A stretch of 38,987 bases of DNA, from the IMG/VR virus record IMGVR_UViG_2879770953_000004; one strand, 5' to 3'. The DNA comes from a virus. Its lineage: Duplodnaviria > Heunggongvirae > Uroviricota > Caudoviricetes. The notes beneath the pieces are model-generated. The model had not been told where the DNA came from. It worked only from the letters and a program-made list of their open reading frames with translations, and searched no databases. Numbering within the stretch: position 1 is the first letter of the stretch; each line of letters opens with the position of its first letter. The position numbers were made by a program, and so were the translations under genes. Shown here piece after piece: positions 2,657 through 32,560 of the stretch.

Positions 2657-3825
<1,169 letters not shown>

Positions 3826-4099
3826 TGGAGCACCTGTGTTGTTCTGAGGTGAGCATATCACCTCTGTTCAGGTGGCCAAATTCAGTGTGCCACTTCATGA
3901 GTCCAGGAAGTTCTCTGTGAAGGGTCTTGTCAGTCCTTTATATTGGGTGATTACAACTCATTGATGAATAAGGGTTTTTCTACAAGCTATCAACTGGATA
4001 GCTTGATGTGACCAACTGAAAGATACAGCTTTCCGGCTTTGTCAAGAGATTTCACTACCCACCAGCTAAAAATATTTCAGAGGCGGGAGTGATTGGAGG

Positions 4100-4288
4100 T
4101 TAGGATGGGTCTTTGTGGTTGTCTTCACGGCCTCTGTCCTTCAGGTCAAACGACCATTCTCGACCGAACAACCGAAACACGATGAACACCCTGACAATGA
4201 CATAGCGAAGTAGTAAGCCTGCGAACAGACCCACACCCCCACCAGCCCATAAATCAGATGACCCCAATTCTTGAGGGAGGTTAAACAT
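4100..4288 (-). CDS. Small single-pass membrane protein (62 aa), function unknown
   Basis: GAAGG Shine-Dalgarno 8 nt upstream of the ATG. One hydrophobic helix (WAGGGVGLFAGLLLRYVIVRVFIVF) and a charged tail. Lies downstream of a strong extended -10 promoter. Confidence 0.35.
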   Translation of the reverse strand: MFNLPQELGSSDLWAGGGVGLFAGLLLRYVIVRVFIVFRLFGREWSFDLKDRGREDNHKDPS

Positions 4289-4371
4289 TCAATGTACCTT
4301 CTGTGTGCAATGCAAAAACATGTGACCAAATACATAGCCACGCTTCATATTTCCCCCTCTCTCATAAACCC

Positions 4372-4380
4372 ATTATACCA
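4372..4380 (-). promoter_or_regulatory. Extended -10 promoter (TGgTATAAT) firing leftward
   Basis: The minus strand reads TGGTATAAT; a perfect TATAAT lies at 4372-4377. Confidence 0.5.
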
Positions 4381-4384
4381 CAAA

Positions 4385-4402
4385 TGTTACGAAATTGTTA
4401 CG
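4385..4402 (+). repeat. Direct repeat TGTTACG x2 with 11-bp period (candidate operator) between divergent promoters
   Basis: TGTTACG at 4385-4391 and at 4396-4402. The second copy runs into the palindrome TTACGTAA. Confidence 0.45.
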
Positions 4403-4409
4403 TAAATGC

Positions 4410-4438
4410 TTGACATTAATCCTTGAAAATGCTAGTAT
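4410..4438 (+). promoter_or_regulatory. Sigma70-like promoter TTGACA-17 bp-TAGTAT firing rightward
   Basis: Perfect -35 at 4410-4415, 17-nt spacer, TAGTAT at 4433-4438. About 50 nt upstream of the ORF at 4491. Confidence 0.5.
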
Positions 4439-4490
4439 TGTATGTATTTAGTTAACAGAATAATAACATTCCATAAGGGTCAGAATATGA

Positions 4491-5042
4491 ATGAACGACA
4501 GAGAATTTCAAAGGTTTCTTGAAGAGAGTAAGGCAAGAAACAAGCACAACTCCTACGCTTACACAAACTCCCCCACCAGCTACGAACTGCCAGCCTTTTC
4601 CAAAACCGAACGTAAAAACATTGAAGCGCTCATTCGTAGCATTACGCCACGGGTAAGACACATGCCAACACGCAAAGAAAAAGAGAACACTTTAAAGACT
4701 TTCCTGATGAGTTTTGATAGCTACGAACAATTACCATCACGAATTGAAGATATTATTATCGGCACTTGTCGCAGCTTTGGAAGAGATAATTATCACCGAA
4801 AAGTTTTCTATTTACTACGAAATATTGACAAGATTAGCTCAAGCACAATAACAAGTTATCTACAGCGTCAAGCGACCCGATTAAGCCATGAGCTACCAAG
4901 TGATAAATATTGCGCTAACTTAGCCACCATTTGCATGAAAGTTATTGAGACAATTAATCATCATGTGGAAGTGGGCAATATTAGCCTTACAACCAGTGAA
5001 CCAGATTTTGAATTTGACCCCTATATTTTGGAGGAATTTTAA
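4491..5042 (+). CDS. Hypothetical protein (183 aa)
   Basis: First ORF of a tightly packed co-directional gene string. No family recognised. Confidence 0.55.
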   Translation: MNDREFQRFLEESKARNKHNSYAYTNSPTSYELPAFSKTERKNIEALIRSITPRVRHMPTRKEKENTLKTFLMSFDSYEQLPSRIEDIIIGTCRSFGRDNYHRKVFYLLRNIDKISSSTITSYLQRQATRLSHELPSDKYCANLATICMKVIETINHHVEVGNISLTTSEPDFEFDPYILEEF

Positions 5043-5043
5043 A

Positions 5044-5322
5044 ATGAATAAACACACTTTGACCCGTATTTCAGAAGAAGCTTTTCACGAGCTTACCCGA
5101 ATTAAACAGACAACTAACCTGCCTCATCAAACTATTATGCAGCTTGCAATTGCTAAAGAGGTCACTGAGTCGGATTTACTGAAATATCCAGTTTCTAAAG
5201 GTCGCAGACACATCAGAATTACTAAGAACGCTCTGGCTACTCTGAAGGAACTGAACAACTTTAAAATTGATATTGCCCGACTATTGAGCATCAAGATTCA
5301 CAAGCTATCGATGGGGGTTTAA
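5044..5322 (+). CDS. Hypothetical small protein, possibly DNA-binding (92 aa)
   Basis: The ATG lies 2 nt after the preceding stop. N-terminus MNKHTLTRISEEAFHELTRIKQTTNLPHQTIMQLAIAKEV has a strand-helix-helix (RHH-like) appearance. This is inference only. Confidence 0.45.
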   Translation: MNKHTLTRISEEAFHELTRIKQTTNLPHQTIMQLAIAKEVTESDLLKYPVSKGRRHIRITKNALATLKELNNFKIDIARLLSIKIHKLSMGV

Positions 5323-5537
5323 TGCTATGCATTACCTTTGAATACCACACAGATAAAATGATTCGCTACATCTCCGACCTCCTGATTAAAGGAAACGGAT
5401 TCGGTGACATCTTTAACTCAAGAGATATTTTCATTAAAGCCATTGGCCCAAATGAAACACTGAAAGCAGCAGTTAAACTGGAATGGTTTGAGCGTCACAA
5501 GATTGAATTAGGTTATTGGGGTGAGGAGGTTTTATGA
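5322..5537 (+). CDS. Hypothetical protein (71 aa)
   Basis: Start overlaps the upstream stop (TAATG). The stop overlaps the next start (ATGA). Confidence 0.45.
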   Translation: MLCITFEYHTDKMIRYISDLLIKGNGFGDIFNSRDIFIKAIGPNETLKAAVKLEWFERHKIELGYWGEEVL

Positions 5538-5821
5538 AACCTTGGCATGAAGATGTTAGGCGATATTTTACAGAACACCTTACCTATGATGAATCCAGTG
5601 ATTCCCTGTGCTGGTCTGATGGAGAGTCGGTCACGATAAATACCGACGACTACGGCAACAAAACATTTAATATAGGTCGATACACATTCTATGTGAAATA
5701 TGTTGTCTGGTTCCTTTATCATGGCTATCAATCCAATAAGCAAATTATCCATCGAAATGGTAACAGAGCCGATACCAGACCAAAAAATCTTATGCAAGTC
5801 CGAGACTTTAAGAGAAATTAG
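5534..5821 (+). CDS. HNH_3-like small nuclease/homing-endonuclease-like protein (95 aa)
   Basis: Motif VVWFLYHGYQSNKQIIHRNGNRADTRPKNL resembles the ...IDHxNGNxxDNRxxNL signature of phage HNH proteins. Confidence 0.5.
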   Translation: MKPWHEDVRRYFTEHLTYDESSDSLCWSDGESVTINTDDYGNKTFNIGRYTFYVKYVVWFLYHGYQSNKQIIHRNGNRADTRPKNLMQVRDFKRN

Positions 5822-5972
5822 AAAAACAGCTTCTCAGACGCTCTCAATCGCATTCTAACGCAAAAAACTACCTTATTTTAGGGTGGACCACTGTACAGGC
5901 TACCCCTGAAAAAGACTGTTTAGCTCGTTACAGAGCGATTGAGGAGGTCTGGTAAAAAGGAGATTTTAGGAA

Positions 5973-6296
5973 ATGAGAGAATATGAATTACAGATTTTCG
6001 TTGATAGCGACACTGCTATGATGGTGCAAAGCTTCATTGATGCAGGTGTGGAAATTGATTTTGATAAATTACTAAAGCTGATGGCTGATAATGCAGAAAA
6101 CATCTCTGACTTTATTCAGTCGGTGGAGTTTAACGAGCCTCGAATGATGTTACCAATTACAGACAGTAATATGAAAAGATTGGTTATTGAGCAAACGAAC
6201 AAATACAGTATTTCCCCAGAGCAATTTTTGAAAGGTGCTGTGACAATCCTGTACAGCGATAATATTTTGGTTACGGATTCCGTGAGGGTTCACTAA
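5973..6296 (+). CDS. Hypothetical acidic protein (107 aa)
   Basis: AAGGAG-type RBS (aaaaggag) upstream. No family recognised. Confidence 0.5.
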   Translation: MREYELQIFVDSDTAMMVQSFIDAGVEIDFDKLLKLMADNAENISDFIQSVEFNEPRMMLPITDSNMKRLVIEQTNKYSISPEQFLKGAVTILYSDNILVTDSVRVH

Positions 6297-6373
6297 TGGG
6301 CTTAATAATTACTTGGACGTTGCTTGGCTTATTTGTTGGTTGCTGGGTGGGTAACACAGTAAATAAGAATTGA
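6296..6373 (+). CDS. Possible 25-aa hydrophobic peptide, translationally coupled (TAATG)
   Basis: MGLIITWTLLGLFVGCWVGNTVNKN read directly from the sequence. Too short for the ORF track. Speculative. Confidence 0.25.
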   Translation: MGLIITWTLLGLFVGCWVGNTVNKN

Positions 6374-6396
6374 TGTTATCAATATGTTAAAAGCTG

Positions 6397-6425
6397 TTGA
6401 CAAATAACCTTAAGCATGAGATGAT
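6397..6425 (+). promoter_or_regulatory. Sigma70-like promoter TTGACA-17 bp-GATGAT
   Basis: Perfect -35 at 6397-6402 but a weak -10. It precedes a ~340-nt untranslated stretch before the ORF at 6769. Confidence 0.35.
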
Positions 6426-6768
6426 GGTAATAGGGGGAGCAACTCTTCCTGAATTAAACTATTAATCATTCTACATCAATGATAGTTATTCTGAGTTGGA
6501 AAGGTGCAATGCTTTTCGTCATGGCCTATTTAGCCCACACTAGATAGGCTATCTCAAAAAGTCTTTGTTCATTCGTTATTGAATCCTTTGGATGTTCTTT
6601 AATTTCTTCACCTTAGCCCTTTATAGCGTTTTAGTTATCTAGGGCTTTTTCAGCTTTTAAAAAGCGCACTTGGCAAACCGCCTTTTAAGTCTCTTCTAAG
6701 TTCGTAGGCTGTCAGGTGTGCTTTTTAAAAACTGAAACATAAATTATCTTAGAAGAGGAAAAATAATA

Positions 6769-7473
6769 ATGTCTATCCGTGATGAACATGAAATGATTAT
6801 CGAAAACAGACCAAGTGCACTTGATATTCACGAATTAAGTTTGCGTGAATCTTTTGATAGAGCTTGGCGGGAATCACACGAAGTAAATAAAGGTCCATAT
6901 ATTCCACCAGAACCACTTGAGATTCCAAGAGTTGAAATTGATTTTTCTATGAACGAACGGTGTGAACTTGATTTGAAGTTGAAGCTACAACGCCGATATT
7001 TCCAAGCTATTAAAGACTCTCAAGAAGCAATGAGAAGTGTTTACGAGAAAATTCAGTCCAAGCTTGAAGACGAAATTGACGAAATGGCTATTTTGATGGA
7101 GCTTCAAACCAATTCTTATGCTTATTTCTCTCGACTAGACCGTGACGGTTGGGGGTATGACCCTGTAGAGATTGGTAAAGTGATTGCAGATTTACCAGAA
7201 GGTCAAAGAGTTGTTCGTACAGAAAGAGCTGTCAGAGCACCACATCGACTGTCTCTAATTGTTGCTGATAAATCACAAGCTGAGCTTGAAGAAATTGCAA
7301 AAGAGAAACTGATGAAAGCAAGAGAAAATGAGATTAATTTGCTGAAATCAAGACTGGCTAAGCTGATTAGTGACCATCAAGCGCTGGCTAAGGAGTACCG
7401 TCAAGAGTTGGCACAGATTATCAGCTTCAATGATTTTCTGAGTGTTCCACGAGAATTTAGCAAGGCTGTTTGA
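6769..7473 (+). CDS. Hypothetical protein with coiled-coil C-terminus (234 aa)
   Basis: GAGGAA RBS upstream. No family recognised. Confidence 0.55.
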   Translation: MSIRDEHEMIIENRPSALDIHELSLRESFDRAWRESHEVNKGPYIPPEPLEIPRVEIDFSMNERCELDLKLKLQRRYFQAIKDSQEAMRSVYEKIQSKLEDEIDEMAILMELQTNSYAYFSRLDRDGWGYDPVEIGKVIADLPEGQRVVRTERAVRAPHRLSLIVADKSQAELEEIAKEKLMKARENEINLLKSRLAKLISDHQALAKEYRQELAQIISFNDFLSVPREFSKAV

Positions 7474-7496
7474 TTATGAATTAAAAGAGGTGATTA

Positions 7497-7709
7497 ATGT
7501 TTGAAGAACGTTTAGAGACTATTCGGTCTGTTTGCGAAAGACTCCAGCTACAACCAAATAGACAAAAGCTACGAATTAAGAATAACCGTCATTACATCAC
7601 CTCACACAAACCAAAAACACGCAAGATTCCAAAGTGGTGTATTGACCGTATTCCTTCTGATGCTCAAATTATAGGTGAAACGGAACTACATTATCTTGTC
7701 CGACATTAA
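7497..7709 (+). CDS. Hypothetical basic protein (70 aa)
   Basis: AGAGGTG RBS upstream. K/R-rich. Confidence 0.45.
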   Translation: MFEERLETIRSVCERLQLQPNRQKLRIKNNRHYITSHKPKTRKIPKWCIDRIPSDAQIIGETELHYLVRH

Positions 7710-7783
7710 AAAAGAATTGGTTGGGTAAATACGGTGAGAGATTATCGAGTGACATCGGTAGTTTCTCCCTTTTTTGTATGTGT

Positions 7784-7850
7784 GCTACGTAAAATCTGTA
7801 AAGTTAATACCCACACTGAAAAATAGAATTTACGTACAACACGCTTAAAG
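7784..7850 (+). promoter_or_regulatory. Leader cassette L1: 8-bp inverted repeat (TACGTAAA / TTTACGTA) bracketing a TAGAAT -10-like box, followed by CACGCTTAA
   Basis: Arms at 7786-7793 and 7829-7836; TAGAAT at 7824-7829. It is a paralogue of the cassette at 10020-10093. Confidence 0.4.
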
Positions 7851-7863
7851 AGGTGAAATATGA

Positions 7864-9930
7864 ATGAGCAGATTTACAGTTGATAGTTTTATCGTTGAGC
7901 TAGGCTTCAATGAAAACGTTATTAAGGGACTGCAAAGAGTTGAAAAGGCAGCTTTGCAGTCAGCACAAAGAATTGAACGTAATTTGAATAGAGCGTTTAA
8001 AGTTAACCCAAAGAGCATGGATAAGGATTTAACAGCCTCTTTGGGAAATATGGAAAAGAAGATTAACCAGACTTTTAATAAGCTGCAGGAAAGAGCCAAA
8101 TCTACGAAGGTCTTTAAGTTCAAAACTCAGGTTGAAGAAACTGTTAAAGCAGCAAGACAGCCACGAATCAGCGGAAGCAGAGCAATTACAGCAGCGCATA
8201 GCGTGAATATGAGCAAGCTTCGTGACTTTAATCCTATGCTTGAGAAGTATTTTAAGAGCCAATATTACAGCTTAAGCAGTAAATCCAAGACACTTGGAAA
8301 CGAAGCTTTTAATCGTGAGTTAGCAAAGTTAAATCAGTCTCTTCGTGAAACACTTTCTAAGTTTAATAAGACCACCAGCAAAAATAATCACAGTGAAAAT
8401 GCTTCGAATGGTCTGGATGTATTAGCTACAAGTGCAATCAAAGCAGGTACAGCCATTTATAGTTTTCAGACAGCCTTAGAAGCTTATAGGAAGATTATGG
8501 AGATTGGTCTGAAAAAAGAAGCATCACAACGAGCGGCACAATTCGTTTTAGGTGATGAAGGTGCTAAACGAGCTACAGAATTTGTTAAGAATCTTGCTGA
8601 TAGTAGTGGTGTAGACCAGATTGAAACATTAAGCAGTTTTGCTAAGTTTTCCGCTGGTGCTGGTGATATGAATGCAGACCAGAAAGAATCCTTATTTTCT
8701 AATGTGATTGGTACATCCAGATTAATGGGGCTAAGCACCGATGAAATTAACGGGATTTTAAAAGCTTTCGAGCAGATGGCATCTAAAGGAAAGATTCAGG
8801 CTGAAGAATTACGCGGTCAGTTAGGGGACAGAATGGCAGGTGCTTTCCAGTTATTTGCCAGAAGCCTTGGAATGACTACGGAAGAATTAGACAAGGCCAT
8901 GAAAGACGGTAAGGTTCTTTCTAAAGATGTTCTCCCTAAAGTATCCGCTGAAATGGGAAGGATGATTGATAAAGCTAGTGGATGGGAAAAGATTATTAAC
9001 TCTACTCAGACGCAGTTAGGCCGCTTAAGTAATTCATGGAACAATAATCTGGCCTTAATGTTCGATGGTTCACAGGAAGGTCTTGTAGATTTTACAAGGT
9101 CACTGACTAATTTACTTAATTCACTGGGTGGTCAATCTAAAAATCTTGGTGAACATTTTGGCGACTTGATGAAAAGCATGTCAAACGGTATTGATGATTT
9201 AACCACGATTAGCTACCGAGTGCAGGGATTCTTTGACAGAGTGACCCTTGCTTACAGAGAATTAAATGACACTCAAAAAGCTGTAGCTGATGGTATCGCA
9301 AATGGCCTGTTAAGTGCATTAAAGGGACTTGCTGGTATTGTCGCTGTAAGGTCTGGTATTGGTGCTGTAGGTGGTATCTGGAACTTAATTAGGGCTATTT
9401 CCACGCTTGGAAATGTCGCAAATACAGCAGCGGGAAGGATTAATTCACGTTCCGGTAGTGTTGAAGGTGGTAAAGGAAAATTATCTGTAGCTGATGCAAT
9501 TACCAGAGTAATGATTGTCGGTATGACGACGGATGTGATTAACTCCATTGTTAAACCACTCTATGAACGTCAGATGAGTAAGTCAGATAATCCGATTGAT
9601 AAAGTTGTAAGGTCAAAGGTGGAACCCACAGACCAGGCATTAACTGGTGACATGAACTCTTTAGCCGCTGTTTTATGGGCTATGGTTCATGGCAAATCAA
9701 AAGATGTTCCACAGTTTTCACCTGAAGCATTAAATAATCTGAAAGGTCGAGTGGAAACATTCACACAAGATTTAAAGGTTATCAAGCCGTCAGTAAATAT
9801 TCAGCCTCAGACAATCAATATCACAACTCAGACGGTACTTGATGGAAAGGTTATTGATGAAAGAACCACATCGCATATTAATCGTATGCAGGAAGATACC
9901 TTGATTAGCTCAGCTTACCCAGAGGAATAA
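7864..9930 (+). CDS. Phage tail tape measure protein (TP901-type core)
   Basis: 688 aa. Helical N-terminus, core ...LMGLSTDEINGILKAFEQMASKGKIQAEELRGQLGDRMAGAFQLFARSLGMTTEEL..., and a glycine-rich hydrophobic segment (GLAGIVAVRSGIGAVGGIWNLI). Confidence 0.75.
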   Translation: MSRFTVDSFIVELGFNENVIKGLQRVEKAALQSAQRIERNLNRAFKVNPKSMDKDLTASLGNMEKKINQTFNKLQERAKSTKVFKFKTQVEETVKAARQPRISGSRAITAAHSVNMSKLRDFNPMLEKYFKSQYYSLSSKSKTLGNEAFNRELAKLNQSLRETLSKFNKTTSKNNHSENASNGLDVLATSAIKAGTAIYSFQTALEAYRKIMEIGLKKEASQRAAQFVLGDEGAKRATEFVKNLADSSGVDQIETLSSFAKFSAGAGDMNADQKESLFSNVIGTSRLMGLSTDEINGILKAFEQMASKGKIQAEELRGQLGDRMAGAFQLFARSLGMTTEELDKAMKDGKVLSKDVLPKVSAEMGRMIDKASGWEKIINSTQTQLGRLSNSWNNNLALMFDGSQEGLVDFTRSLTNLLNSLGGQSKNLGEHFGDLMKSMSNGIDDLTTISYRVQGFFDRVTLAYRELNDTQKAVADGIANGLLSALKGLAGIVAVRSGIGAVGGIWNLIRAISTLGNVANTAAGRINSRSGSVEGGKGKLSVADAITRVMIVGMTTDVINSIVKPLYERQMSKSDNPIDKVVRSKVEPTDQALTGDMNSLAAVLWAMVHGKSKDVPQFSPEALNNLKGRVETFTQDLKVIKPSVNIQPQTINITTQTVLDGKVIDERTTSHINRMQEDTLISSAYPEE

Positions 9931-10019
9931 ACAATGTTAGAACTACTAATATTTATTGCCACACATGGCAATCTATTAATCTTTATCTAGTATGACGATT
10001 CAACTATGAATAGTCGAAT

Positions 10020-10093
10020 GCTACGTGATTTCTTCTGAACAGATACCAACATCAAAAATTAGATTTCACGTAGCTCACGCTTAACAGAATAGG
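10020..10093 (+). promoter_or_regulatory. Leader cassette L2: 9-bp inverted repeat (GCTACGTGA / TCACGTAGC) bracketing TGAACA-18 bp-TAGATT, followed by CACGCTTAACAGAATA
   Basis: Arms at 10020-10028 and 10066-10074. The central part aligns with L1 (ATACC.ACA...AAAAAT.AGA.TT.ACGTA..CACGCTTAA). Confidence 0.4.
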
Positions 10094-10103
10094 AATAACA
10101 ACA

Positions 10104-10877
10104 ATGTTTGACACAAAGCAAATTAGATACTCAGGTAAAGATGGTATCTATTTTCACCTTAGAGATAATGTAGAATCTTTTCTTGCCTTAACAGCTACTG
10201 AACAGATGGACTATGACTCACCGATGATGGTGACAACTCAGGCTATGCAATCGGGGCAAACTATCACTGATAATGTTCAGAGAGCACCTAAGACCATCTC
10301 TATTAGCGGTGTTGTAGTGGTTGATTCGACGGGTTCAGTTCTATTAACCAGACAGGGGCAACTTGTAGAAACCTTTATTTCTACGGTTGAACAATGGCGA
10401 GACCAGAAGCAAATCATCACTATTGTTTGTAGAGATGGAATAGCTATCACTGATAGTATCATTACTCAGTTTAAAGCGAGTAAAGAGCATACCATTGCTA
10501 ACGGTCTTCGTATTCAGATGACCTTCCAAGGTGTAGAGTTTCGTTCAATCGTAGGTCAAACTGATATCTCGGCTGCTACTGGAAAGACAGCTACTACAAA
10601 TGATGGTGGTGCTACCAGCAAAAAGAATACAGGGAACACTACGACAAGCTTAGGTAACGGTATGTTGATGTGTCAGGAGCTATATAATCGCTCTACGAGT
10701 GAACTTTCTAATGAGCAACTTCAAGCCCGTATCAATTGTGGTAGGAATGTCAGAGTTAAGAACGGAAAAAGCACCTTCTCAGATGCCGCTAATGAGCAAG
10801 CTTCAAAGGTGCTTAATAATGCTGGTACAGGTAGTACTTTGAAGAAGTTTTCGGTGAATCCGAATAAGCGCTACTGA
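10104..10877 (+). CDS. Hypothetical tail-associated protein (257 aa)
   Basis: Lies immediately after the tape measure gene. Has a weak pattern resemblance to post-tape-measure tail-tip/baseplate initiator proteins (..ISISGVVVV.....IVCRDG....[11 protein letters not shown]). The C-terminus is low-complexity. Confidence 0.4.
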
Positions 10878-11713
10878 CGATAGAATCTCAACTATATGAT
10901 AACCTCATCAACATCTATTAAACCCCTCTCAGTGACTTCAGAAAGCGACTGTATAGCCTCTGTAACGTTGTCTGAGGGGTTTTCTGTTATTGGTAGGTCA
11001 ATTACCTTACCGTTGTGAAAAGTCACTTTACATCGACGTTTAGCAGTATTTAAAACGACCTCTTTAACAGCACTTTTGATTATCAGTTGTGCTTCAATCC
11101 TTCCCGCCTTTGTAGTCAAGTCACAATCAGACAAACACCCCACATCAATAGATTTAAGGCGTTGTGTCTCCTTCTCGATATCCGCATCAACCTGTGATAG
11201 CTCATTCTTTAGTTGTTTTAGCTTGCTGGTAATAGCTGACAAATCTTCAATTTCAAGTGATAGCTGTACCAGCTTCTCAATATTGCTTGAGATGTGTTCA
11301 CGGTGTAACTTCAGTGTATCGATGGTATTCGTCGTATCGCTATCAAATCGGTCAAGACGAGATAGCAGGGTAAGCAATGTACCATCGGTTTGCTTACGTG
11401 ACAGCCCTTTAGCACTACAACGGTTTTCATTACGAAGGGGACAGCGATAAATCCCGTTTCTTGTATCGCTAAAGCCTGTGATAATCAGAGCATGACCACA
11501 TTCAGAGCAACGGATAACACCTTTGAAAAGATTCACAGCCATTGGCTTATCTGAAGCAGGTTTTCTACCGTAACGAGCATATGATAGTTGCTGGACTTTG
11601 TAGAATGTTGTTTCATCTATAATTGCAGGATAATAATCAGCTATCTCTTCACAGCCTTTAGGTGTGAAGTAACCAATTACAGAGCGATTTTTCAGAAGGT
11701 CTTGTACTGAGGT

Positions 11714-11718
11714 TTGAC
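11714..11718. repeat. IS2 target-site duplication TTGAC (left)
   Basis: Identical pentamer at 13050-13054. Confidence 0.9.
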
Positions 11719-11729
11719 TGGATTTGCCC

Positions 11730-12635
11730 CTATATTTCCAGACATCTGTTATCACTTAACCCATTACAAGCCCGCTGCCGCAGATATTCCCGTGGCGAGC
11801 GATAACCCAGCGCACTATGCGGATGCCATTCGTTATAATGCTCGAACGCCTCTGCAAGGTTCTTTGCTGCCGTTAACCCGTCTGGTTTGGGCATGATACT
11901 GATGTAGTCACGCTTTATCGTTTTCACGAAGCTCTCTGCTATTCCGTTACTCTCCGGACTCCGCACCGCCGTGTTCTTCGGTTCAAGTCCCAACATCCGG
12001 GCGAACTGGCGTGTTTCATTAGCCCGGTAGCATGAACCATTATCCGTCAGCCACTCCACTGGAGACGACGGAAGATCGTTGCCGAAGCGGCGTTCCACCG
12101 CTCCCAGCATGACGTCCTGTACTGTTTCACTGTTGAAGCCGCCGGTAGTCACCGCCCAGTGCAGTGCCTCACGATCACAGCAGTCCAGCGCGAACGTGAC
12201 ACGCAGTCTCTCTCCGTTATCACAGCAGAACTCGAACCCGTCAGAGCACCATCGCTGATTGCTTTCTTTCACGGCCACTCTGCCTGTATGTGCCCGTTTC
12301 GATGGCGGTACAGCAGGTTTTCGCTCAAGCAACAGCGCATTCTGGCGCATGATCCGGTAAACACGTTTGGCATTGATCGCAGGCATACCATCAAGTTCTG
12401 CCTGTCTGCGAAGCAGCGCCCATACCCGACGATAACCATACGTGGGCAGCTCTCCGATAACATGGTGTATACGGAGAAGCACATCCGTATCATCAGTGTG
12501 ACGACTGCGGCGGCCATCCATCCAGTCATCGGTTCGTCTGAGAATGACGTGCAACTGCGCACGCGACACCCGGAGACAACGGCTGACTAAGCTTACTCCC
12601 CATCCCCGGGCAATAAGGGCGCGTGCGCTATCCAC
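11730..12635 (-). CDS. insD: IS2 OrfB (InsD) transposase
   Basis: 301-aa DDE transposase matching IS2 InsD as remembered. Confidence 0.95.
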
Positions 12636-12958
12636 TTTTTTGCCCGTCCATATTCAACGGCTTCTTTGAGGAGTTCATTTTCCATCGTTTTCTTGCCGAG
12701 CAGGCGCTGGAGTTCTTTAATCTGCTTCATGGCGGCAGCAAGTTCAGAGGCAGGAACAACCTGTTCTCCGGCGGCCACAGCAGTAAGACTTCCTTCCTGG
12801 TATTGCTTACGCCAGAGAAATAACTGGCTGGCTGCTACACCATGTTGCCGGGCAACGAGGGAGACCGTCATCCCCGGTTCAAAGCTCTGCTGAACAATTG
12901 CGATCTTTTCCTGTGTGGTACGCCGTCTGCGTTTCTCCGGCCCTAAGACATCAATCAT
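12593..12958 (-). CDS. insC: IS2 OrfA (InsC)
   Basis: [56 protein letters not shown]... matches IS2 InsC as remembered. An A6G slippery run lies at 12635-12641. Confidence 0.95.
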
Positions 12959-13049
12959 CTGTTCTCCAATGACTAGTCTAAAAACTAGTATTAAGACTAT
13001 CACTTAAATAAGTGATACTGGTTGTCTGGAGATTCAGGGGGCCAGTCTA

Positions 13050-13054
13050 TTGAC
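13050..13054. repeat. IS2 target-site duplication TTGAC (right)
   Basis: Identical pentamer at 11714-11718. Confidence 0.9.
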
Positions 13055-13852
13055 CAAATGAACCCGCTTTATATTGGTTAAGCGTCTGGTGACCTTCATC
13101 ATTAAGAGTCCTGACAATCTCCCAGATAGACTTACCCTCTAACCGTAGCTGAAAGCACCTCTTCACAGTCTCCACTTTCTCAGGGATTACAGAGAAGCTT
13201 TTACGGTCATCATTAAGCTTAAGCCATGCAGGACAACGTTTAGAAATCTTGATACCTTCAGAGATGAGTTCTTTTTTACGGTTCCATGCAGCTTGTATAC
13301 GCTCAGACTTCCTCAAACTCTCCTCATGCGACCGCTGCATTATCAGAATGCTTTTAATCAGAGCTAACGGGTCTTTAAGAGATTCTCGTGTGTAATGTTC
13401 ACCATCGGACAAGGTGACCACATCTACACCAGAGCGAAGAATGTTTCTGAGTAGCTCACTTGCTTGGTCTACATCTTGACGTGACAGACGGTCAAGAGAT
13501 TCTATCAAGAGCGTATCACCAGCTTTAACAAGCCCTTTCTCGATAGCGGTTAAAAAGTCACCTAAGCCACCTTTCAAGTGCTTACCAGTGAACCCACTCA
13601 CCCCCAAATCACGGAAGGATAAATCTTGGTCAAGGTAGTACTCAGGATGAGCCTTAAGCCAGTCATTAACCATCTTAGACTGTCTGCGTAGTGAGTCGCC
13701 TTTGGCTTGTCGCTCAGAACTGAATCTGATGTAGCTGATTACACGTTTCATTCTTTACCACCATAAAAACTAATAGCAGTTGGGCTTGTTATGAGGATGC
13801 TTCATCCGAATCATCTACCAACCCCTAGATTGTATCGCTTTAGGTGGTGTAT

Positions 13853-14275
13853 TTAAACGTGTCTGATGAAAATCACCCGATTAACGCCGCGCTGATGTAA
13901 ACCGCGATTAAGCGTTTGTTCCTCTTCCCCTTTGGCGAAAAACTGTGGATGGCGGACTTCCACACCATAATTAAATTCGCCAGGGAGAGAATCGAGAAAA
14001 TGCCAAAGCGCAGGCAGCTCCCGTGGGCCGAATGTGGCAGGCAGTTGCAGCCAGTATTGCCCAATGCGCGGAGCCAACGGTGACATGCGGGTCAAAAATT
14101 CAGTCACTAAATCATCGCAATGTCGTAATGCTGCCTGATGCGAAATGGTCGCCGGAAACTTAAAACAGAAGCGGAAGTCATCTGTGGTCTGTTCACGCCA
14201 GCGCAGGACAACCTCGGGTTTCGGCAGGGCGTAAAGCGTGGTGTTGCCCTCCACGCAGTTAACATGACGGGTATT
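13853..14275 (-). pseudogene. yecE: Internal fragment of yecE (DUF72 family), truncated at both ends by mobile-element junctions
   Basis: Translation ...NCVEGNTTLYALPKPEVVLRWREQTTDDFRFCFKFPATISHQAALRHCDDL...LHQRGVNRVI matches the middle of E. coli YecE as remembered. Similarity is lost after RGVNRVI (~13870) and upstream of ..RH.NCVEG (~14275). Confidence 0.6.
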
Positions 14276-14311
14276 GAAGGCTAACCCACTGATTTTAATA
14301 AGTCTCTTGTG

Positions 14312-15583
14312 TCACTTTGGTGACCATGGGACATAATCTGCCAGCTTCTGATTCAGCATTGCGATCTGTTCTGCATTACTGTCAGTCATCCATGCTCCGT
14401 ATACATTGAACACCATCTGGGCACTTGCATGGCCCATCTAGCTGGCAATGAAGCTTGGGTTTGCTCCGGCAGATAATGACCAGCACGCATAAGTGTGTCG
14501 TGACTGGTATGCTTTCCGGTGCCTGATGCCCGCACGCTTAATGGCTGTTTCCCATGAGTCGCCAATGGAATCTACCTTGTAGATAAAACCTACCTGTTTG
14601 CTTTTTCTAACCACCTGGGGGTTAAATACGAAAGTACATTCATGATTCACTGAACGTCCATATTCACGTAGTTGAACCTTGATGTGGTGCTGCTTACCCA
14701 GTCTTGTCATTTCAGCCTGATTTTTCAGGACACTGATAGCGGGCTGGATAAGATGCACAACCCTGTTTGTACTTGCTTCAGTTTTAGGTAGAGTGAACTC
14801 ACCGAGTTTCGTATAATTGCGCCTGATAGTAATAGTTCCTGCTTTCATATCGATATCTTCCCAGGCCAGGGAGACCAGTTCACCGTGACGCATTCCTGTG
14901 TACACAGCCAATGACCACAGGTTTTTCGTCTGCTGATGTCGGCAAGCATCTATCAGGCGAATAAATTCGTCACGAGTTAACGGATCTGGCTCTGCCCTGG
15001 CTCTTTTAAGAGGCTTAATTCCCTGGAAGGGATTTGCTTCTAAGTAACCGTGATCTGCAGCAAACTGAAACATTCCAGCGATTGTCGTCATGTAATAATT
15101 TACAGTAACGACGCTCCGTCCTTTTGCTGCTGCTTTGTTTTTCGTTGAATTCTGATACCCGGTCAGCAAATCTTTCCTGATATACAGCAATTCCTCTTTG
15201 GTTACCGATGACACCAGTCTGCCGCCTCCAATTTTCGGAACCATCGTTCTTGCAACGGATTCATAGCGATTGAATGCATTTGCAGAGATTTCCATTCGTT
15301 TCAGATCCAGCCACTTTTCTTCAAGTTCCTTCACCGTAATTTCTTTTTTACTTACCCCAAAAGCCTGAAGGTTAGGGGAGTCAGGGAACTGTGCAGCATA
15401 ATCAAAGCTTCCTGTGCGGATGGCAAAACATACCGATGTCCGCAGTTCCCCGGCGATCTTCCTGTTCTTGGCAGTGTCAGGGACACCAAGATTTTCCCTG
15501 ACACGTTTACCTTTAAAATTAAACCAGATGCGTAATGTGCCGCCGTGGTTTTCGACGCCTGTTGGATATTTGACTTTATCCAT
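14312..15583 (-). pseudogene. int: Phage tyrosine integrase with an in-frame TAG removing the catalytic-Tyr segment
   Basis: The ORF ends ...SAGANPSFIAS at TAG 14438-14440. The same frame continues MGHASAQMVFNVYGAWMTDSNAEQIAMLNQKLADYVPWSPK to TGA at 14312-14314. The R (TGMRHGEL) and SRHTYA boxes lie upstream of the stop. Confidence 0.85.
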
Positions 15584-15706
15584 CGATACCTCCAGACGCC
15601 CAAGAGCGATACGAGCTTACATATTTCATGATATTAAATCACTGAGGTAGCCTGAGTTTAACGGACACTCCTTCCTGAAATAGAATGGCATCAGAAGGAG
15701 CTAATA

Positions 15707-16009
15707 ATGAGCAGAAAAACCCAACGTTACTCTAAAGAGTTCAAAGCCGAAGCTGTCAGAACGGTTCTTGAAAATCAACTTTCGATCAGTGAAGGCGCTT
15801 CCCGATTATCTCTTCCTGAAGGCACTTTAGGACAATGGGTTACCGCCGCCAGAAAAGGGCTCGGTACTCCTGGTTCCCGCACGGTGGCTGAACTGGAATC
15901 TGAAATTCTGCAACTGCGTAAGGCGTTAAATGAAGCTCGCCTTGAGCGAGATATATTAAAAAAAGCAACAGCGTATTTTGCACAGGAGTCGCTGAAAAAT
16001 ACGCGTTAA
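15707..16009 (+). CDS. IS600 OrfA
   Basis: MSRKTQRYSKEFKAEAVRTVLENQLSISEGASRLSLPEGTLGQWV... An A7G slippery run lies at 15958-15965. Confidence 0.9.
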   Translation: MSRKTQRYSKEFKAEAVRTVLENQLSISEGASRLSLPEGTLGQWVTAARKGLGTPGSRTVAELESEILQLRKALNEARLERDILKKATAYFAQESLKNTR

Positions 16010-16044
16010 TCGAACAATGGCGACAACAATTTCCCATTGAAGCG

Positions 16045-16863
16045 ATGTGTCAGGTATTTGGTGTATCCAGGAGCGGTTATTACAACTGGGTACAGCATGA
16101 ACCCTCAGACAGAAAACAAAGTGATGAGCGGCTAAAACTGGAGATTAAGGTGGCACATATCCGCACTCGCGAAACATATGGAACCCGGCGGCTCCAGACG
16201 GAGCTGGCAGAGAATGGCATCATCGTTGGTCGTGACCGACTGGCACGTCTTCGTAAGGAGCTGAGGCTACGCTGTAAGCAGAAACGCAAGTTCAGAGCGA
16301 CTACGAACCCGAACCACAATCTGCCAGTTGCGCCAAATCTGCTGAACCAGACGTTCGCTCCTACAGCACCAAATCAGGTCTGGGTGGCGGACCTGACGTA
16401 TGTTGCCACACAGGAGGGATGGTTGTACCTCGCTGGCATCAAAGATGTTTATACGTGCGAAATTGTCGGCTACGCCATGGGAGAGCGCATGACAAAAGAG
16501 CTGACAGGTAAAGCCCTGTTTATGGCGCTCAGGAGCCAGCGCCCACCTGCCGGGCTAATCCACCACTCTGATCGAGGTTCACAGTACTGCGCATACGATT
16601 ACCGGGTCATACAGGAGCAGTTTGGTCTGAAAACATCAATGTCGCGTAAAGGTAACTGTTACGACAACGCTCCGATGGAAAGCTTCTGGGGAACGCTGAA
16701 AAATGAGAGCCTGAGCCACTATCGTTTTAATAACCGGGATGAAGCCATCTCAGTAATACGGGAATACATTGAGATTTTCTACAATCGTCAGCGTCGTCAC
16801 TCTCGTCTGGGGAATATCTCCCCGGCAGCCTTCAGGGAAAAATATCATCAGATGGCTGCTTAA
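16045..16863 (+). CDS. IS600 OrfB frame (DDE transposase)
   Basis: VWVADLTYV...HHSDRGSQYCA...CYDNAPMESFW core. Confidence 0.9.
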   Translation: MCQVFGVSRSGYYNWVQHEPSDRKQSDERLKLEIKVAHIRTRETYGTRRLQTELAENGIIVGRDRLARLRKELRLRCKQKRKFRATTNPNHNLPVAPNLLNQTFAPTAPNQVWVADLTYVATQEGWLYLAGIKDVYTCEIVGYAMGERMTKELTGKALFMALRSQRPPAGLIHHSDRGSQYCAYDYRVIQEQFGLKTSMSRKGNCYDNAPMESFWGTLKNESLSHYRFNNRDEAISVIREYIEIFYNRQRRHSRLGNISPAAFREKYHQMAA

Positions 16864-16906
16864 AAAAAGAACAAATGGTAGTGTCCGCTATTGCCAGTAC
16901 ACCTCA

Positions 16907-17008
16907 CTTATCGACGACGAGCAGTTTGATGAAACCAATATTGTGCGCGGACTGCCTGTTCCTGGTGGTCGGTTGGGGATAAAAATCACAGAGCTGGAGT
17001 GTGCATGA
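16907..17008 (+). pseudogene. 3' remnant of a RusA-like Holliday junction resolvase gene, truncated by IS600
   Basis: ...LIDDEQFDETNIVRGLPVPGGRLGIKITELECA resembles the RusA C-terminus (..[32 protein letters not shown]). ATGA stop/start overlap with the next gene. Confidence 0.5.
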
Positions 17009-17694
17009 ATAACCAGTATTTACAGTTTGTTCGTGAGCAGCTCATTATCGCCACCGCTGATTTGAGTGGGGCGACAAAAGGTCAGCTTGAAGCCTGGCAG
17101 GGGAATGCCATGTTCGATACAGGGCGTTACAGGCGTAAAAAAATCCGGTACCGCGATGAGGTGACCGGAAAAATGATAACGCGGGATAATCCACCAATCC
17201 CGGGAAAACAATCACTGGCGAAGGGGGCGTCAATTCCTCTGGTCAGTCAGGTTGCGTTTTCGACATCATCGTGGCGGCGGGCTGTTCTGTCTCTTGAAGA
17301 GCACCATAAAGCCTGGTTGTTGTGGTGTTACAGCGGAAGTATTTGCTGGGAGTATCAGATCACCATAACCCACTGGGCGTGGGAAGAGTTTAAGGCTCAT
17401 TCTGGCACTAGGAAAATTGCAGAGAAAACACAGGAACGCCTGAAAAAATTAATCTGGCTGGCGGCGCAGGCGGTAAAAGCAGAACTTTTTGGTGGGGAAG
17501 GTTATGAATATCAGGAGCTGGCATTACTGGCGGGAGTAACAACCAAAAACTGGTCCAAAACATTTACTGGTCACTGGGTTGTAATGAAACACATTTTTCA
17601 CCGACTGGATAGTGAGGCTTTATTGTTTGTGATGAGAACACGTTTAGAACAAAAAGCGGCATTTTCAAAGCAAAGTATTGCAAAAGTAGATTAA
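17005..17694 (+). CDS. Late-gene antiterminator Q-like protein
   Basis: Position after ninR-type rusA and before a pR'-like promoter, terminator and tRNA cluster. I recall this family (MNNQYLQFVREQL...) being annotated as antitermination protein Q in O157-type lambdoid prophages, but this is unverified. Confidence 0.55.
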   Translation: MNNQYLQFVREQLIIATADLSGATKGQLEAWQGNAMFDTGRYRRKKIRYRDEVTGKMITRDNPPIPGKQSLAKGASIPLVSQVAFSTSSWRRAVLSLEEHHKAWLLWCYSGSICWEYQITITHWAWEEFKAHSGTRKIAEKTQERLKKLIWLAAQAVKAELFGGEGYEYQELALLAGVTTKNWSKTFTGHWVVMKHIFHRLDSEALLFVMRTRLEQKAAFSKQSIAKVD

Positions 17695-17724
17695 AAGGCA
17701 TATATTTCATGCAAATCTGATACT

Positions 17725-17752
17725 TTGCCGATTTTGTACGCGATGGTAAAGT
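17725..17752 (+). promoter_or_regulatory. Candidate late promoter (pR'-like) TTGCCG-16 bp-TAAAGT
   Basis: Hexamers read 30 nt after the Q stop. The position is analogous to lambda pR'. Confidence 0.35.
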
Positions 17753-17756
17753 AAGC

Positions 17757-17787
17757 AAAACCCGCCGCCGAGCGGTTTTTTTATGCC
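17757..17787 (+). terminator. Candidate intrinsic terminator (tR'-like)
   Basis: Short GC hairpin (CCGC...GCGG) followed by a T7 run. The stem is weak. Confidence 0.4.
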
Positions 17788-17870
17788 TGAAAAATGGCAC
17801 AGGACGTTAAACGTGCTGGTGGTCAGATGAGTTTGCAGATGTGATGACATATGGTTATTATTCTGCCTCC

Positions 17871-17946
17871 GGCCCTTTAGCTCAGTGGTGAGAGCGAGCG
17901 ACTCATAATCGCCAGGTCGCTGGTTCAAGTCCAGCAAGGGCCACCA
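17871..17946 (+). tRNA. tRNA-Ile2 (anticodon CAU, ileX-like; reads AUA after lysidine modification)
   Basis: Cloverleaf folded by hand. Near-identical to E. coli ileX as remembered. CCA is encoded. Confidence 0.85.
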
Positions 17947-17947
17947 A

Positions 17948-18021
17948 CCACCACTAGCTCATCCGGATAGAGCATCAACCTTCTAAGTTGACGGTCCGAG
18001 GTTCAAGTCCTCGGTGGTGGG
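17948..18021 (+). tRNA. tRNA-Arg (anticodon UCU, reads AGA)
   Basis: Hand fold: acceptor CCACCAC/GTGGTGG, D-arm GCTC/GAGC, anticodon stem TCAAC/GTTGA with loop CTTCTAA, T-arm CGAGG/CCTCG with TTCAAGT loop. No encoded CCA. Confidence 0.75.
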
Positions 18022-18026
18022 CCTGC

Positions 18027-18102
<76 letters not shown>

Positions 18103-18105
18103 TAT

Positions 18106-18180
<75 letters not shown>

Positions 18181-18794
18181 GCGAGATTTGAGACGAAGGT
18201 TGTTATTTGCACTGACACAATATTGTGTGGGAATGTCTGACTCCTTACCATCTCCTGTTCTGTGATGTTGTTTTGTTGCAGTTCCAGTGCTCTTTTTTCA
18301 GCACCAGAATGGTGCATTGTCGGTCAGGTTACGTAGTGAACCTCTGGCAGGGGACTGATGATTCATCATTCTGGTGTTGTAAATATCTCTTCGGACAACT
18401 TACAAAATATTCTAAGCAAACCCCGGGGACACACTCTTAACTGCCTTGGCTGGCGGTTTTTTGTACAGCGCTCGGTATGTGTGAGCTGGAAATCAGATTT
18501 TGCATGGACTGGAATCATGCTGTTATTTAGGGGCGAAGAACTGGCTTTTTCTTCCGCCTTCTCAGCAGTAACGATTAGAAAAATAATGAAATGCCCCCCT
18601 CCGGGGAGGAGGACCGTAGAAAAAAGGACCCGCCAGCAAAAACATTGGGGATGAACAGCTTTCGCTACTCAGATTGCTGGCGGGTAAAGTTCCTCATGAA
18701 TTAAGAATGCTACGCGATCTTTTTTAATGGAAATGAAAATTATTGTCAATTAGTCGTGCGTGTTTTTTCATACAATATTGGTAAAGGTGATTCA

Positions 18795-18826
18795 GGTCAT
18801 CAGAGTTTTGCTGATGGCCTTTTTTC
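18795..18826 (+). terminator. Rho-independent terminator
   Basis: 9-bp stem GGTCATCAG/CTGATGGCC (one G-U pair), 7-nt loop, T6 run. Confidence 0.55.
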
Positions 18827-18879
18827 TTTCCGATAGCACAGGTCTGTCGGGGGGGGTCCCTATTAAGTTGTCAAGCATG

Positions 18880-20076
18880 TTATGACCCCTGCGGGGTATA
18901 AAAAGTCCCGTCGCGCATCATGGCGAACAGAACGTCGCAGCGTCGTCTCGCCAGGGCGATAAGCGCCTGATTGTGTCGTTTTCCCTGACTCATTTTGCGG
19001 GTGTAGTAAGCCCTGGAGAGCGGATCCCTGAGCGCGGCGAAGGCCGACAGGAACAACGCCCGTTTGAGAGCTTTATTACCCCGTCGCGAGGGATGCTCAC
19101 CGCGTATTGACGAGCCGGCTCGCCGAGTTACCGGCGCAAGGCCAGCATAAGCAGCGAGATGTGCGGCAGAGGCGAAGGCGCGGCAGGCGACCTCGGTGAG
19201 GAGTCTGGCTGCGGTCCTGACACCGACTCCGGGCATACTGGTCAGGACCGGGTAAAGAGGGTGAGCAAGAACTCGCTGTTCTACCTCAAGCGCCACCTCG
19301 TCTCTTTGCTTACGCAGCGTGATGAGCTGGAGTGCCAGACGTGGCAGTACTACGGCAGCGGCATTCGTGCCGGGAACGACGACGGTTTGTTCGGCCAGTG
19401 CCTGAGCTATGTCTGCTGCAAGGCGTTTACCCAGACGAGGCGCAAGTTTGCAGAGCTGGGCTGCCAGCTTCTTCTCACCCAGCGAAGCGAGTTTTTCTGG
19501 TGAGGGATATCGCTGGAGAAGATCGAGTACCGCCGGGTGCTCAAGTCTCGGACCGAGAACGCGCTCCAGTGCCGGATGTATCTGGGTCAGAAGGCCGCGG
19601 ATACGGTTGCTGGCCTGCGTTGTCTGTGCGGCAAGATCATCATCGAAGCCGCAGAGCATGGAGAGTTCGGCGATTTGCTCGTCAGCCAGTTTCAGCGTGC
19701 GTAGCGCGTGAGGCAGGGTACGGGCAGCTTCGGCAATGATGGCAGCGTCACGAGCATCAGTTTTAGCTTCACCGGCGTGTAAGTCGGCTATGCGGCGCAT
19801 GGCCAGTCCAGGGAGGTATCCGACAAGGACTCCTTCTGAGCGGGCAACGGCGACAGGTAACGCACCGATGGTAGCTGGCTGATCAACAACCAGCAGTATC
19901 TGACCATGTTGTTTCAGGTCAGATATTAGCGACCTGAGTTTGTTTTCGTCGTTGGGTAATGCTTTATCGAACAGGCGTTTACCTGAACGATTAATGGCAA
20001 CAGCGTGATGCGTATCTTTACCGACATCAATGCCGATAAAGACCTGGACGGATTCGCAATCGCTGGATTCGGTCAT
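18880..20076 (-). CDS. IS110-family transposase/recombinase (398 aa)
   Basis: N-terminal RuvC-like DEDD motif (FIGIDVGKDTHH...VVDQP...TDARDA). C-terminal Tnp domain (SMPGVGVRTAARLL...AGLAPVTRRAGSSIRG). Confidence 0.85.
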   Translation of the reverse strand: MTESSDCESVQVFIGIDVGKDTHHAVAINRSGKRLFDKALPNDENKLRSLISDLKQHGQILLVVDQPATIGALPVAVARSEGVLVGYLPGLAMRRIADLHAGEAKTDARDAAIIAEAARTLPHALRTLKLADEQIAELSMLCGFDDDLAAQTTQASNRIRGLLTQIHPALERVLGPRLEHPAVLDLLQRYPSPEKLASLGEKKLAAQLCKLAPRLGKRLAADIAQALAEQTVVVPGTNAAAVVLPRLALQLITLRKQRDEVALEVEQRVLAHPLYPVLTSMPGVGVRTAARLLTEVACRAFASAAHLAAYAGLAPVTRRAGSSIRGEHPSRRGNKALKRALFLSAFAALRDPLSRAYYTRKMSQGKRHNQALIALARRRCDVLFAMMRDGTFYTPQGS

Positions 20077-20270
20077 TCTGTCTCCCTTGTATATGGGTTA
20101 ACCAGATAACCACGGGGAGCAGGTACCGGCATCCACGTTACAGACGGTCCCGGCAAAAGTGCCTGACCTGACCCCTATTAGCGGTTACCAGCGCCCCACC
20201 AGACCCGGTGACATCACCCCCCGGATCATGGACGACTGGGGGCAGTAATCATGCCGGGTCTGGCTGGCTA
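20077..20270 (-). ncRNA. Candidate IS110 bridge/guide RNA region in the 5' non-coding end
   Basis: The minus strand contains a perfect 10-bp stem CCAGACCCGG...CCGGGTCTGG enclosing ~45 nt with an internal CATGAT repeat. The position corresponds to where IS110-group elements encode bridge RNA. Confidence 0.35.
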
Positions 20271-32493: not shown

Positions 32494-32512
32494 ATTTTAT
32501 AACCCAGATACG

Positions 32513-32536
32513 GGCACCAGAAATGGTGCCTTTTTT
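32513..32536 (+). terminator. Rho-independent terminator after J
   Basis: GGCACC-AGAAAT-GGTGCC followed by T6. Confidence 0.6.
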
Positions 32537-32560
32537 ATTGCAGAAAAGCGAGAGGTAATT

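Follow-up and report, generated by a model that had tools for sequence, protein, structure and literature searches.

The stretch of DNA analyzed here, which we call the window, is 38,987 nucleotides (nt) long and is held in IMG/VR as a Caudoviricetes record (IMGVR_UViG_2879770953_000004). It carries an internal piece of the chromosomal gene yecE, bordered on the left by an element that encodes a large serine recombinase and on the right by a lambdoid prophage with a tyrosine integrase gene. A first-pass annotation had drawn attention to positions 13853-14311, proposing that the middle of yecE lies there intact after the gene was hit twice by unrelated elements, and that alignment to an uninterrupted gene should place the breakpoints. 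That alignment, to yecE of Escherichia coli K-12 (locus L001 1161..1979, minus strand), fixes both of them to the base. The fragment occupies 13869..14262 on the minus strand and corresponds to nt 86-479 of the 819-nt gene, both crossover sequences included, with 98.7% identity over 394 bp (L001 1501-1894). Its translation covers YecE residues ~30 to 159, from ..NCVEGNTTLY.. to ..RGVNRVI, and of 5426 complete E. coli genomes, 5419 contain a match to it. The gene was thus correctly recognized and its middle is intact, within an interval drawn slightly too wide: 13853-13868 is the end of the serine-recombinase element and 14263-14311 is phage DNA. On the left, the breakpoint had been put at ~13870, and we map the crossover dinucleotide AA to 13869-13870. 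On the right, a junction does exist, but its position was misjudged as ~14275; the 11-bp common core lies at 14252-14262. Some BLAST matches extend to 14274 because the phage stretch 14263-14274 merely resembles yecE over these ~12 bp.

The remaining pieces of the gene lie beyond the window and were read in close relatives. The first 6834 bp of the window are identical (0 mismatches) to CP026098.1 (L013), and positions 25396-38987 (13.6 kb) are 99.95% identical to CP054892.1 (L005). These two accessions are Shigella flexneri serotype 3a strains FDAARGOS_74 and FDAARGOS_713 in a published strain table (PMC9455713). The window matches S. flexneri 3a FDAARGOS_74, and an IpaH-type gene within it fits Shigella. 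In these relatives, the order is yecN, yecE 3′ piece, element, yecE middle piece, prophage, yecE 5′ piece, yecD, aspS. The pieces measure 342 nt (3′, next to yecN, in FDAARGOS_74), 392 nt (window, with the AA dinucleotide assigned to the 3′ piece) and 85 nt (5′, next to yecD, in FDAARGOS_713). When rejoined, they give an exact 819-nt open reading frame (ORF) of 272 codons that is identical to K-12 at 811 of 819 positions. The hope that the tandem hit would supply the junction sequences was borne out insofar as both attachment (att) sites could be defined, but in the window itself, each element shows just one of its junctions. The remaining junctions fall outside, one of them 93 bp before the window starts (position 1 being 93 bp inside the left end of the element, as read at the yecN-yecE 3′ junction in FDAARGOS_74) and the other ~0.6 kb past its right end.

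The left edge is a large serine recombinase junction

The left neighbor had been described as a serine-integrase element, and its recombinase gene bears this out. The 5′ part of the gene (13050..13751, minus strand) encodes a resolvase catalytic domain (PF00239, E 1.1e-18, on 13047-13751), and the 3′ part (10892..11718, minus strand) encodes the Recombinase and zinc-ribbon domains (PF07508 and PF13408, on 10892-11755). The resulting Pfam order of Resolvase, Recombinase and Zn_ribbon_recom is that of the large serine recombinases. The N-terminus reads MKRVISYIRFSSERQ and includes the motif YIRFSSERQ, with the nucleophilic serine expected of a resolvase domain. The start codon at 13751 is 117 bp from the junction, in line with the ~120 bp first estimated. 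Between the two parts lies a 1331-bp insertion sequence (IS) at 11719..13049 on the minus strand, which we take to be IS2 from its size, end sequences and ORF sizes; the other IS names used for the window are likewise based on size, end sequences and ORF lengths. Its ends were read directly, its 5-bp target duplication, TTGAC, appears as a 5-bp overlap against the intact gene, and its transposase ORFs contain HTH_Tnp_1 and rve domains. Split by IS2, the recombinase copy in the window must be inactive. The 3′ part is 95-97% identical to intact 507-amino acid (aa) genes in E. coli 2011C-4315 and PEC1009, and these intact relatives match phrog_95 ‘integrase’ with an E value of 1.5e-78.

We compared the bacterial target (attB) with the two junctions of the integrated element (attL and attR) using the empty site of K-12, both junctions in PEC1009, where the element is alone, the divergent copy in 2011C-4315, the left junction in FDAARGOS_74 and the right one in the window. 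In the variant found in the window and PEC1009, target and element share only the dinucleotide AA, which corresponds to yecE nt 478-479 in the minus-strand reading (TT on the coding strand). Joining the element ends reconstructs the element site, attP, as GGTGGTGTATTTAAACGTGTCTGATG-AA-GATTAGCAAGGTCTAAATACACCTCC, a sequence of ~54 bp with two 26-nt imperfect inverted arms. By hand count, the arms match at 19 of 26 positions after one is reverse-complemented, and a repeat finder reports 14-nt inverted arms, 93% complementary and symmetric about the TT/AA dinucleotide. One attP-derived arm (13843-13868) and the crossover AA together span 13843..13870 of the window. The site therefore consists of imperfect inverted half-sites around a 2-bp crossover, without long shared identity, as expected for this class of enzyme.

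The predicted attP also occurs outside the chromosome. A scan of public metagenome contigs returned one match, an 11,473-bp contig (L019; ERZ1090866 NODE-760) with attP at 2941-2972. It contains the entire element in circularly permuted form, with the right end joined to the left through the predicted attP dinucleotide, and lacks yecE flanks. Its final ~43 bp are Nextera sequencing adapter; without them, the contig closes within a few bases, and its length fits the 11,434-bp integrated copy in 2011C-4315. This shows that an excised form of the element exists in nature, as seen in one metagenome. The same scan of IMG/VR gave no match. We conclude that the left edge is a genuine large serine recombinase att junction, and we predict that the intact 507-aa recombinase catalyzes attP x attB recombination at yecE.

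Phage-type large serine recombinases of the phiC31, Bxb1 and TP901-1 class provide a comparison. They have the same domain order, an attP of ~50 bp with imperfect inverted arms and a non-palindromic 2-bp crossover, and an attB inside a gene. The recombinase in the window differs in residing on a 12-kb element instead of a complete phage, and no recombination directionality factor was identified with it.

Several possible relatives of the recombinase were considered and set aside. A yecE-integrating phage encoding Shiga toxin (Stx) type Stx2e had seemed a possible carrier, but a tblastn search of 50,697 phage records found nothing above 36% identity; the best matches, at ~36%, were YbcK-like proteins of lambdoid coliphages. 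A 12.7-kb virome contig, MT836130, was rejected as a relative, sharing merely a 30%-identical recombinase. Scanning species-representative genomes with the recombinase returned only a paralogue in S. flexneri SFBU1023 and a short Escherichia contig, neither of them informative for yecE. The paralogous gene in SFBU1023 (CP182556.1, L014 3001-3915) has ~80% nucleotide identity over its first 580 bp, sits at a different locus and is cut by an IS600-like element. Judging from its location, the recombinase family may use more than one attachment site.

The right edge is a lambda-type integrase junction

The att common core on the right is the 11-bp sequence CACGCAGTTAA at 14252..14262, corresponding to yecE nt 86-96. 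It is identical at attB and at both prophage ends: we find it at the int-side junction in the window, E. coli SE11 and 2011C-4315, and at the far junction in SE11 and S. flexneri FDAARGOS_713. Next to the core, a lambda-type tyrosine integrase gene (14281..15583, minus strand) encodes an arm-binding domain (Arm-DNA-bind_2, PF12167, E 7.5e-24) and a catalytic domain (Phage_integrase, PF00589, E 6e-13), in agreement with the earlier description of the right neighbor as a lambdoid prophage. Its DNA is 97.8% identical to that of the integrase in the yecE prophage of SE11. The right edge is a lambda-type tyrosine-integrase junction.

In contrast to the serine recombinase site at yecE, for which we found no published description in the literature searched, the tyrosine site is already known. 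The first-pass annotation had named yecE as a known target of lambdoid and Stx phages, and two studies report it as such (PMC8112680, PMC10657854). The Stx2a prophage P12 of O145:H28 strain 112648 and the stx2 prophages of O26:H11 strains occupy the same gene at the same site as the prophage in the window. In O26 strains, the 5′ piece of yecE consists of bases 1-96 and a hybrid gene begins at base 71, so that bases 71-96 are common to both (PMC10657854); the core CACGCAGTTAA falls within these bases. A 21-bp yecE att sequence has been described for lambdoid and Stx phages (PMC8112680), with which our 11-bp core agrees at the level of description.

The integrase gene in the window is a pseudogene. 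It had been read as ending at 14312, but its ancestral stop codon is at 14281-14283. Relative to the 437-aa SE11 orthologue, a C>T change turns Gln382 into a stop codon upstream of the MGH...NVYG catalytic tail, and nt 1250-1260 are missing in a further 11-bp deletion. The arm-binding and catalytic domains are therefore recognizable, whereas the tail with the tyrosine nucleophile is not intact. The orthologues in SE11 and 2011C-4315 are intact at 437 aa. In SE11, RefSeq annotates a 256-aa DUF72 ORF (L004 48829-49599) that runs from phage DNA into yecE and overlaps the int stop codon; where the prophage is alone, as in SE11, the phage end may supply a substitute yecE 5′ end.

Beyond int, a 1265-bp IS3-family element that is IS600-like (15643..16907, plus strand; 100- and 272-aa ORFs with HTH_Tnp_1 and rve domains, ends read directly) stands in place of xis and the early region. 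Alignments with SE11 and 2011C-4315 break off at 15642-15648, where the 3′ end of xis lies. Because similarity to the intact relatives ends at the IS600-like element, the prophage has lost xis as well as its early region as far as the Q antiterminator gene, and the IS directly connects int to the Q region. This suggests that an IS-associated deletion removed xis together with the immunity and replication genes.

yecE contains two attachment sites, each also found occupied alone

These features almost certainly reflect two independent attachment sites in yecE, 381 bp apart, which in this S. flexneri lineage are both occupied, one by a serine recombinase element and the other by a tyrosine integrase element. 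The ~12-kb element would have entered when its large serine recombinase joined the symmetric ~54-bp attP to an attB centered on AA at yecE nt 478-479. The lambda-like prophage, now with ipaH, would have entered when its arm-binding tyrosine integrase recombined at the 11-bp core. Both reactions would be conservative, with target bases neither lost nor gained, and this would account for the division of yecE into pieces of 342, 392 and 85 nt. Subsequent events would have locked the arrangement: IS2 split the serine recombinase gene, int gained its premature stop and 11-bp deletion, and the IS600-like element removed xis and most early genes. As read from their sequence, both recombinase genes are inactivated in this genome and both elements are immobilized, and the serine-recombinase element is fixed in this S. 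flexneri lineage. The order of insertion, like the activity of the recombinases in the intact relatives, is something we infer.

Each element also occurs without the other. The serine-recombinase element is alone in yecE in E. coli PEC1009, ECE218 and ECE228, and the prophage is alone in SE11 and in many Shiga toxin-producing E. coli strains. They occur together in 2011C-4315 and in no fewer than 13 further E. coli genomes. A single composite element is therefore excluded. The first-pass annotation had suggested surveying each insertion separately, and we did so in the 5426 complete E. coli genomes, Shigella being sampled only by exact-protein look-ups. The serine site is uninterrupted in 5139 genomes, leaving ~287 (5.3%) interrupted; the tyrosine site is uninterrupted in 4903 and interrupted in ~523 (9.6%), with 450 genomes containing this type of int junction. 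Both junctions were seen directly in at least 14 genomes, and no more than 30 are without a match that crosses at least one edge of the middle fragment. Double occupancy thus amounts to 14-30 genomes (0.26-0.55%), compared with ~28 expected under independence. Tandem occupation had been called unusual; its absolute frequency is indeed low, but it is not surprising, being neither avoided nor favored within the limits of non-independent genomes. A 133-aa ORF created by the double configuration occurs in 1898 blocks of public assemblies, and in each of the ten places listed, it lies between int and the serine recombinase.

We weighed two other origins for the fragment and its edges. In some published prophages, a yecE-like segment of 100 bp with 87% identity to the gene serves as a secondary attB (PMC8112680), and the phage side of our junction resembles yecE for ~12 bp. 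The fragment could then be such a prophage-borne site, with one element nested in the other instead of in the gene. This is very improbable, and is ruled out by identity and flanking context: the fragment matches K-12 at 98.7% over 394 bp, not at 87%, and in relatives it continues into pieces on the yecN and yecD sides that restore the gene exactly. Rearrangement between IS copies by deletion or inversion, which the five IS copies in the window, an IS2 copy just 820 bp away from the left junction and the IS600-like element abutting int might bring to mind, has a negligible chance of having made either breakpoint, given that no IS end lies at either one, that the same att junctions occur in single-element E. 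coli genomes without these IS copies, that the yecE pieces rejoin without loss or duplication of a base, and that the attP appears as predicted in the excised form.

Some considerations do count against the two-site interpretation. The far junctions were read in close relatives (with 0 mismatches over 6.8 kb for L013 and 99.95% identity over 13.6 kb for L005) rather than in the window, and recombination by either enzyme at the yecE sites is what we deduce from sequence. The survey counts rest on BLAST coverage thresholds, and among the 30 genomes of the upper bound are a few, such as PK8217, that have other lesions. Finally, the genomes are phylogenetically non-independent, and comparison with the expected number is rough.

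The prophage at yecE is a defective ipaH island

The remainder of the defective lambdoid prophage extends over 16999..38987 on the plus strand, as delimited by Pfam matches, tRNA calls, similarity to the SE11 tail module and its continuation in FDAARGOS_713, where the far att core follows it and, after that, the yecE 5′ piece and yecD. The Q antiterminator region (16999-17694) is followed downstream by four tRNA genes (Met-CAT, Arg-TCT, Thr-TGT and Gly-TCC; 17871-18180), of which the Gly region alone matches the SE11 prophage. An Rfam search of the whole window found nothing except these four tRNAs. An IS110-family element occupies 18848-20310, and the terminase, portal and capsid genes are missing between it and the FI packaging gene at 20340. 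In FDAARGOS_713, yecD is interrupted by another copy of this IS110-family element (L005 5445-7087). Head-tail and tail genes make up further parts of the remainder, and at its tail-fiber end, a gene for a 583-aa ipaH-type effector (35391-37142, minus strand; LRR_TTSS and NEL E3 ligase domains in Pfam) forms low-GC (guanine plus cytosine) cargo. The yecE prophage here is an ipaH island. It differs in this from the Stx prophages at the same site, carrying ipaH in place of stx, and is heavily deleted and IS-ridden, with an int pseudogene and no xis.

A second copy of IS2 lies at 37748-38987, the window end. It has the same orientation as the copy at 11719-13049 and is 99.9% identical to it, and the pair flanks the 5′ part of the recombinase gene, the yecE fragment and the prophage. 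Recombination between the two copies would delete ~26 kb, the yecE double hit included.

The aspS-yecN interval appears as the site of the ‘PAI sit’ island in a table of a review on Shigella and enteroinvasive E. coli (PMC7545054). As far as that table entry goes, the interval is the same as ours; no sit genes are present among the window ORFs examined, and the cargo here is ipaH.

The serine-recombinase element shares genes and intergenic DNA with Felix O1-like phages

The integrative element with the serine recombinase occupies 1..13868 of the window and is collinear with the copy in PEC1009 (L003 17908-29976). It is ~12 kb long in intact relatives (range 11.4-12 kb) and 13.96 kb here because of two IS insertions. 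One is the IS2 in the recombinase gene. The other is a 1255-bp IS3-family element at 2646..3900 (minus strand; HTH_Tnp_1 and rve ORFs, terminal inverted repeats TGATGAAGTGG...CCACTTCATGA), which is missing from the PEC1009 copy.

Few of its genes are recognizable: those for a tape measure protein, a tube initiator, a Dam methylase, an HNH endonuclease and the recombinase. The majority of ORFs match no family. The tape measure gene (7864..9930, plus strand) encodes 688 aa and matches Pfam TMP_3 and phrog_4036 (E 1.8e-97); its product is 38-51% identical in parts to the tape measure of the Felix O1-like phage SUSP2. The gene at 10104..10877 (plus strand) encodes a 257-aa homologue of a tail tube initiator with a Dit_like domain, matching PDB entry 9ndy_A, ‘Tube initiator protein (gp018)’, over its full length (E 4.6e-106). 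The role of the tube initiator is described in the Bas63 structure paper (PMC12609058). The homologue in the element shares 69-73% aa identity with the gene just downstream of the tape measure in Felix O1-like phages (SUSP2, Sf13/14 and related phages).

Non-coding DNA is shared as well. At 1763..1865 (plus strand), the unique motif GATTTTTAATGTGGCTACTACCATCCACCC followed by short repeats of the NNACC type has matches in 111 phage records, almost all of them Felix O1-like, where they fall in unannotated intergenic DNA; identity is 77-95% and E values go down to 8e-19. Its SUSP2 counterpart (28990-29057) lies between gp040 and the DNA ligase gene. The element variants in 2011C-4315 and L019 share another 30-bp sequence with a divergent SUSP2 intergenic region. 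The GC content of the element is 39.4%, against 39.9% in SUSP2. Homologues of the tape measure and tube initiator together with a conserved intergenic sequence thus tie the element to Felix O1-like phages as a presumed helper.

Other searches were negative. No matches to capsid, portal or terminase families were found in the element with Pfam or PHROGs, though 6-8 of its ORFs, including ones of 277, 183, 234 and 107 aa, lack assignable function, and no recognizable replication gene was found in it. PADLOC gave nothing credible among the element proteins, with no defense-system matches; a PDB sequence search with three of the ORFs without assigned function returned nothing, and apart from the tape measure and tube initiator, none of the element proteins has a SUSP2 homologue.

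Because structural-gene homologues, shared intergenic DNA and an excised circle occur together, we tentatively propose, as a reading that stops somewhat short of probable, that the element is functional and lives as a satellite-like parasite on virulent Felix O1-like myoviruses (Ounavirinae), and that it belongs to a previously undescribed family. We found no description of a Felix O1 satellite in the literature searched. Such an element would integrate by a large serine recombinase, as do the phage-inducible chromosomal island-like elements (PLEs) of Vibrio cholerae, which are satellites of the virulent phage ICP1. It would bring tape measure and tube-initiator genes of its own, along with a copy of the conserved phage intergenic sequence, which is possibly an origin or other cis-acting site. 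Felix O1-like phages would mobilize the element during infection, or the element would interfere with them.

To the extent that abstracts and general knowledge describe PLEs, the resemblance lies in a small chromosomal island with a large serine recombinase, an excised circle and sequence ties to a virulent myovirus rather than a temperate phage. Viewed through the same sources, the two differ in that the element has no sequence relationship to PLE genes, has another host and another presumed helper, and carries tail-gene homologues. By analogy with PLEs, helper infection would trigger excision, replication and packaging of the element, of which the circle assembled from one metagenome gives an indirect sign.

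Alternatively, the element could simply be what is left of a temperate prophage after decay, namely an integrase and part of a tail module, with neither a function in its own right nor any relation to virulent phages. We regard this as possible, if on the doubtful side. The paucity of recognizable phage genes among ORFs without family matches would fit decay, as would the lack of matches to capsid, terminase or replication genes and of an attP contig in IMG/VR. Against decay, diverged variants of the element are all 11.4-12 kb in size and share one gene order, and their ORFs are intact, with dN/dS of 0.14-0.33. Between variants, the recombinase is ~94% conserved, while in the divergent ones, the tape measure is 43-50% identical and the tube-initiator gene 62-79%. 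The excised circular form in a metagenome, the match of the structural genes to strictly virulent phages, the conserved Felix O1-like intergenic sequence and a GC content equal to that of these phages also speak against this alternative. It is possible, too, that the element is a conserved helper-independent island or an unusually stable prophage remnant.

Discussion

Two yecE att sites are now fixed to the base: AA at nt 478-479 for the serine recombinase and CACGCAGTTAA at nt 86-96 for the lambdoid integrase. The two sites can be occupied at the same time, and the double hit accounts for the three yecE pseudogene pieces in S. flexneri 3a and some E. coli. Its significance is modest, namely that a dispensable gene contains two independent att sites that are both sometimes occupied. 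In practical terms, the result is of use to prophage typing schemes that take yecE occupancy as a marker, and the attP/attB pair of the serine recombinase is a candidate for a genome-engineering integrase.

The serine-recombinase element is the more interesting part. Should it prove to be a satellite of Felix O1-like phages, enterobacteria would have their own counterpart of the Vibrio PLE-ICP1 system, and this would bear on phage therapy and biocontrol, in which Felix O1-like phages are widely used.

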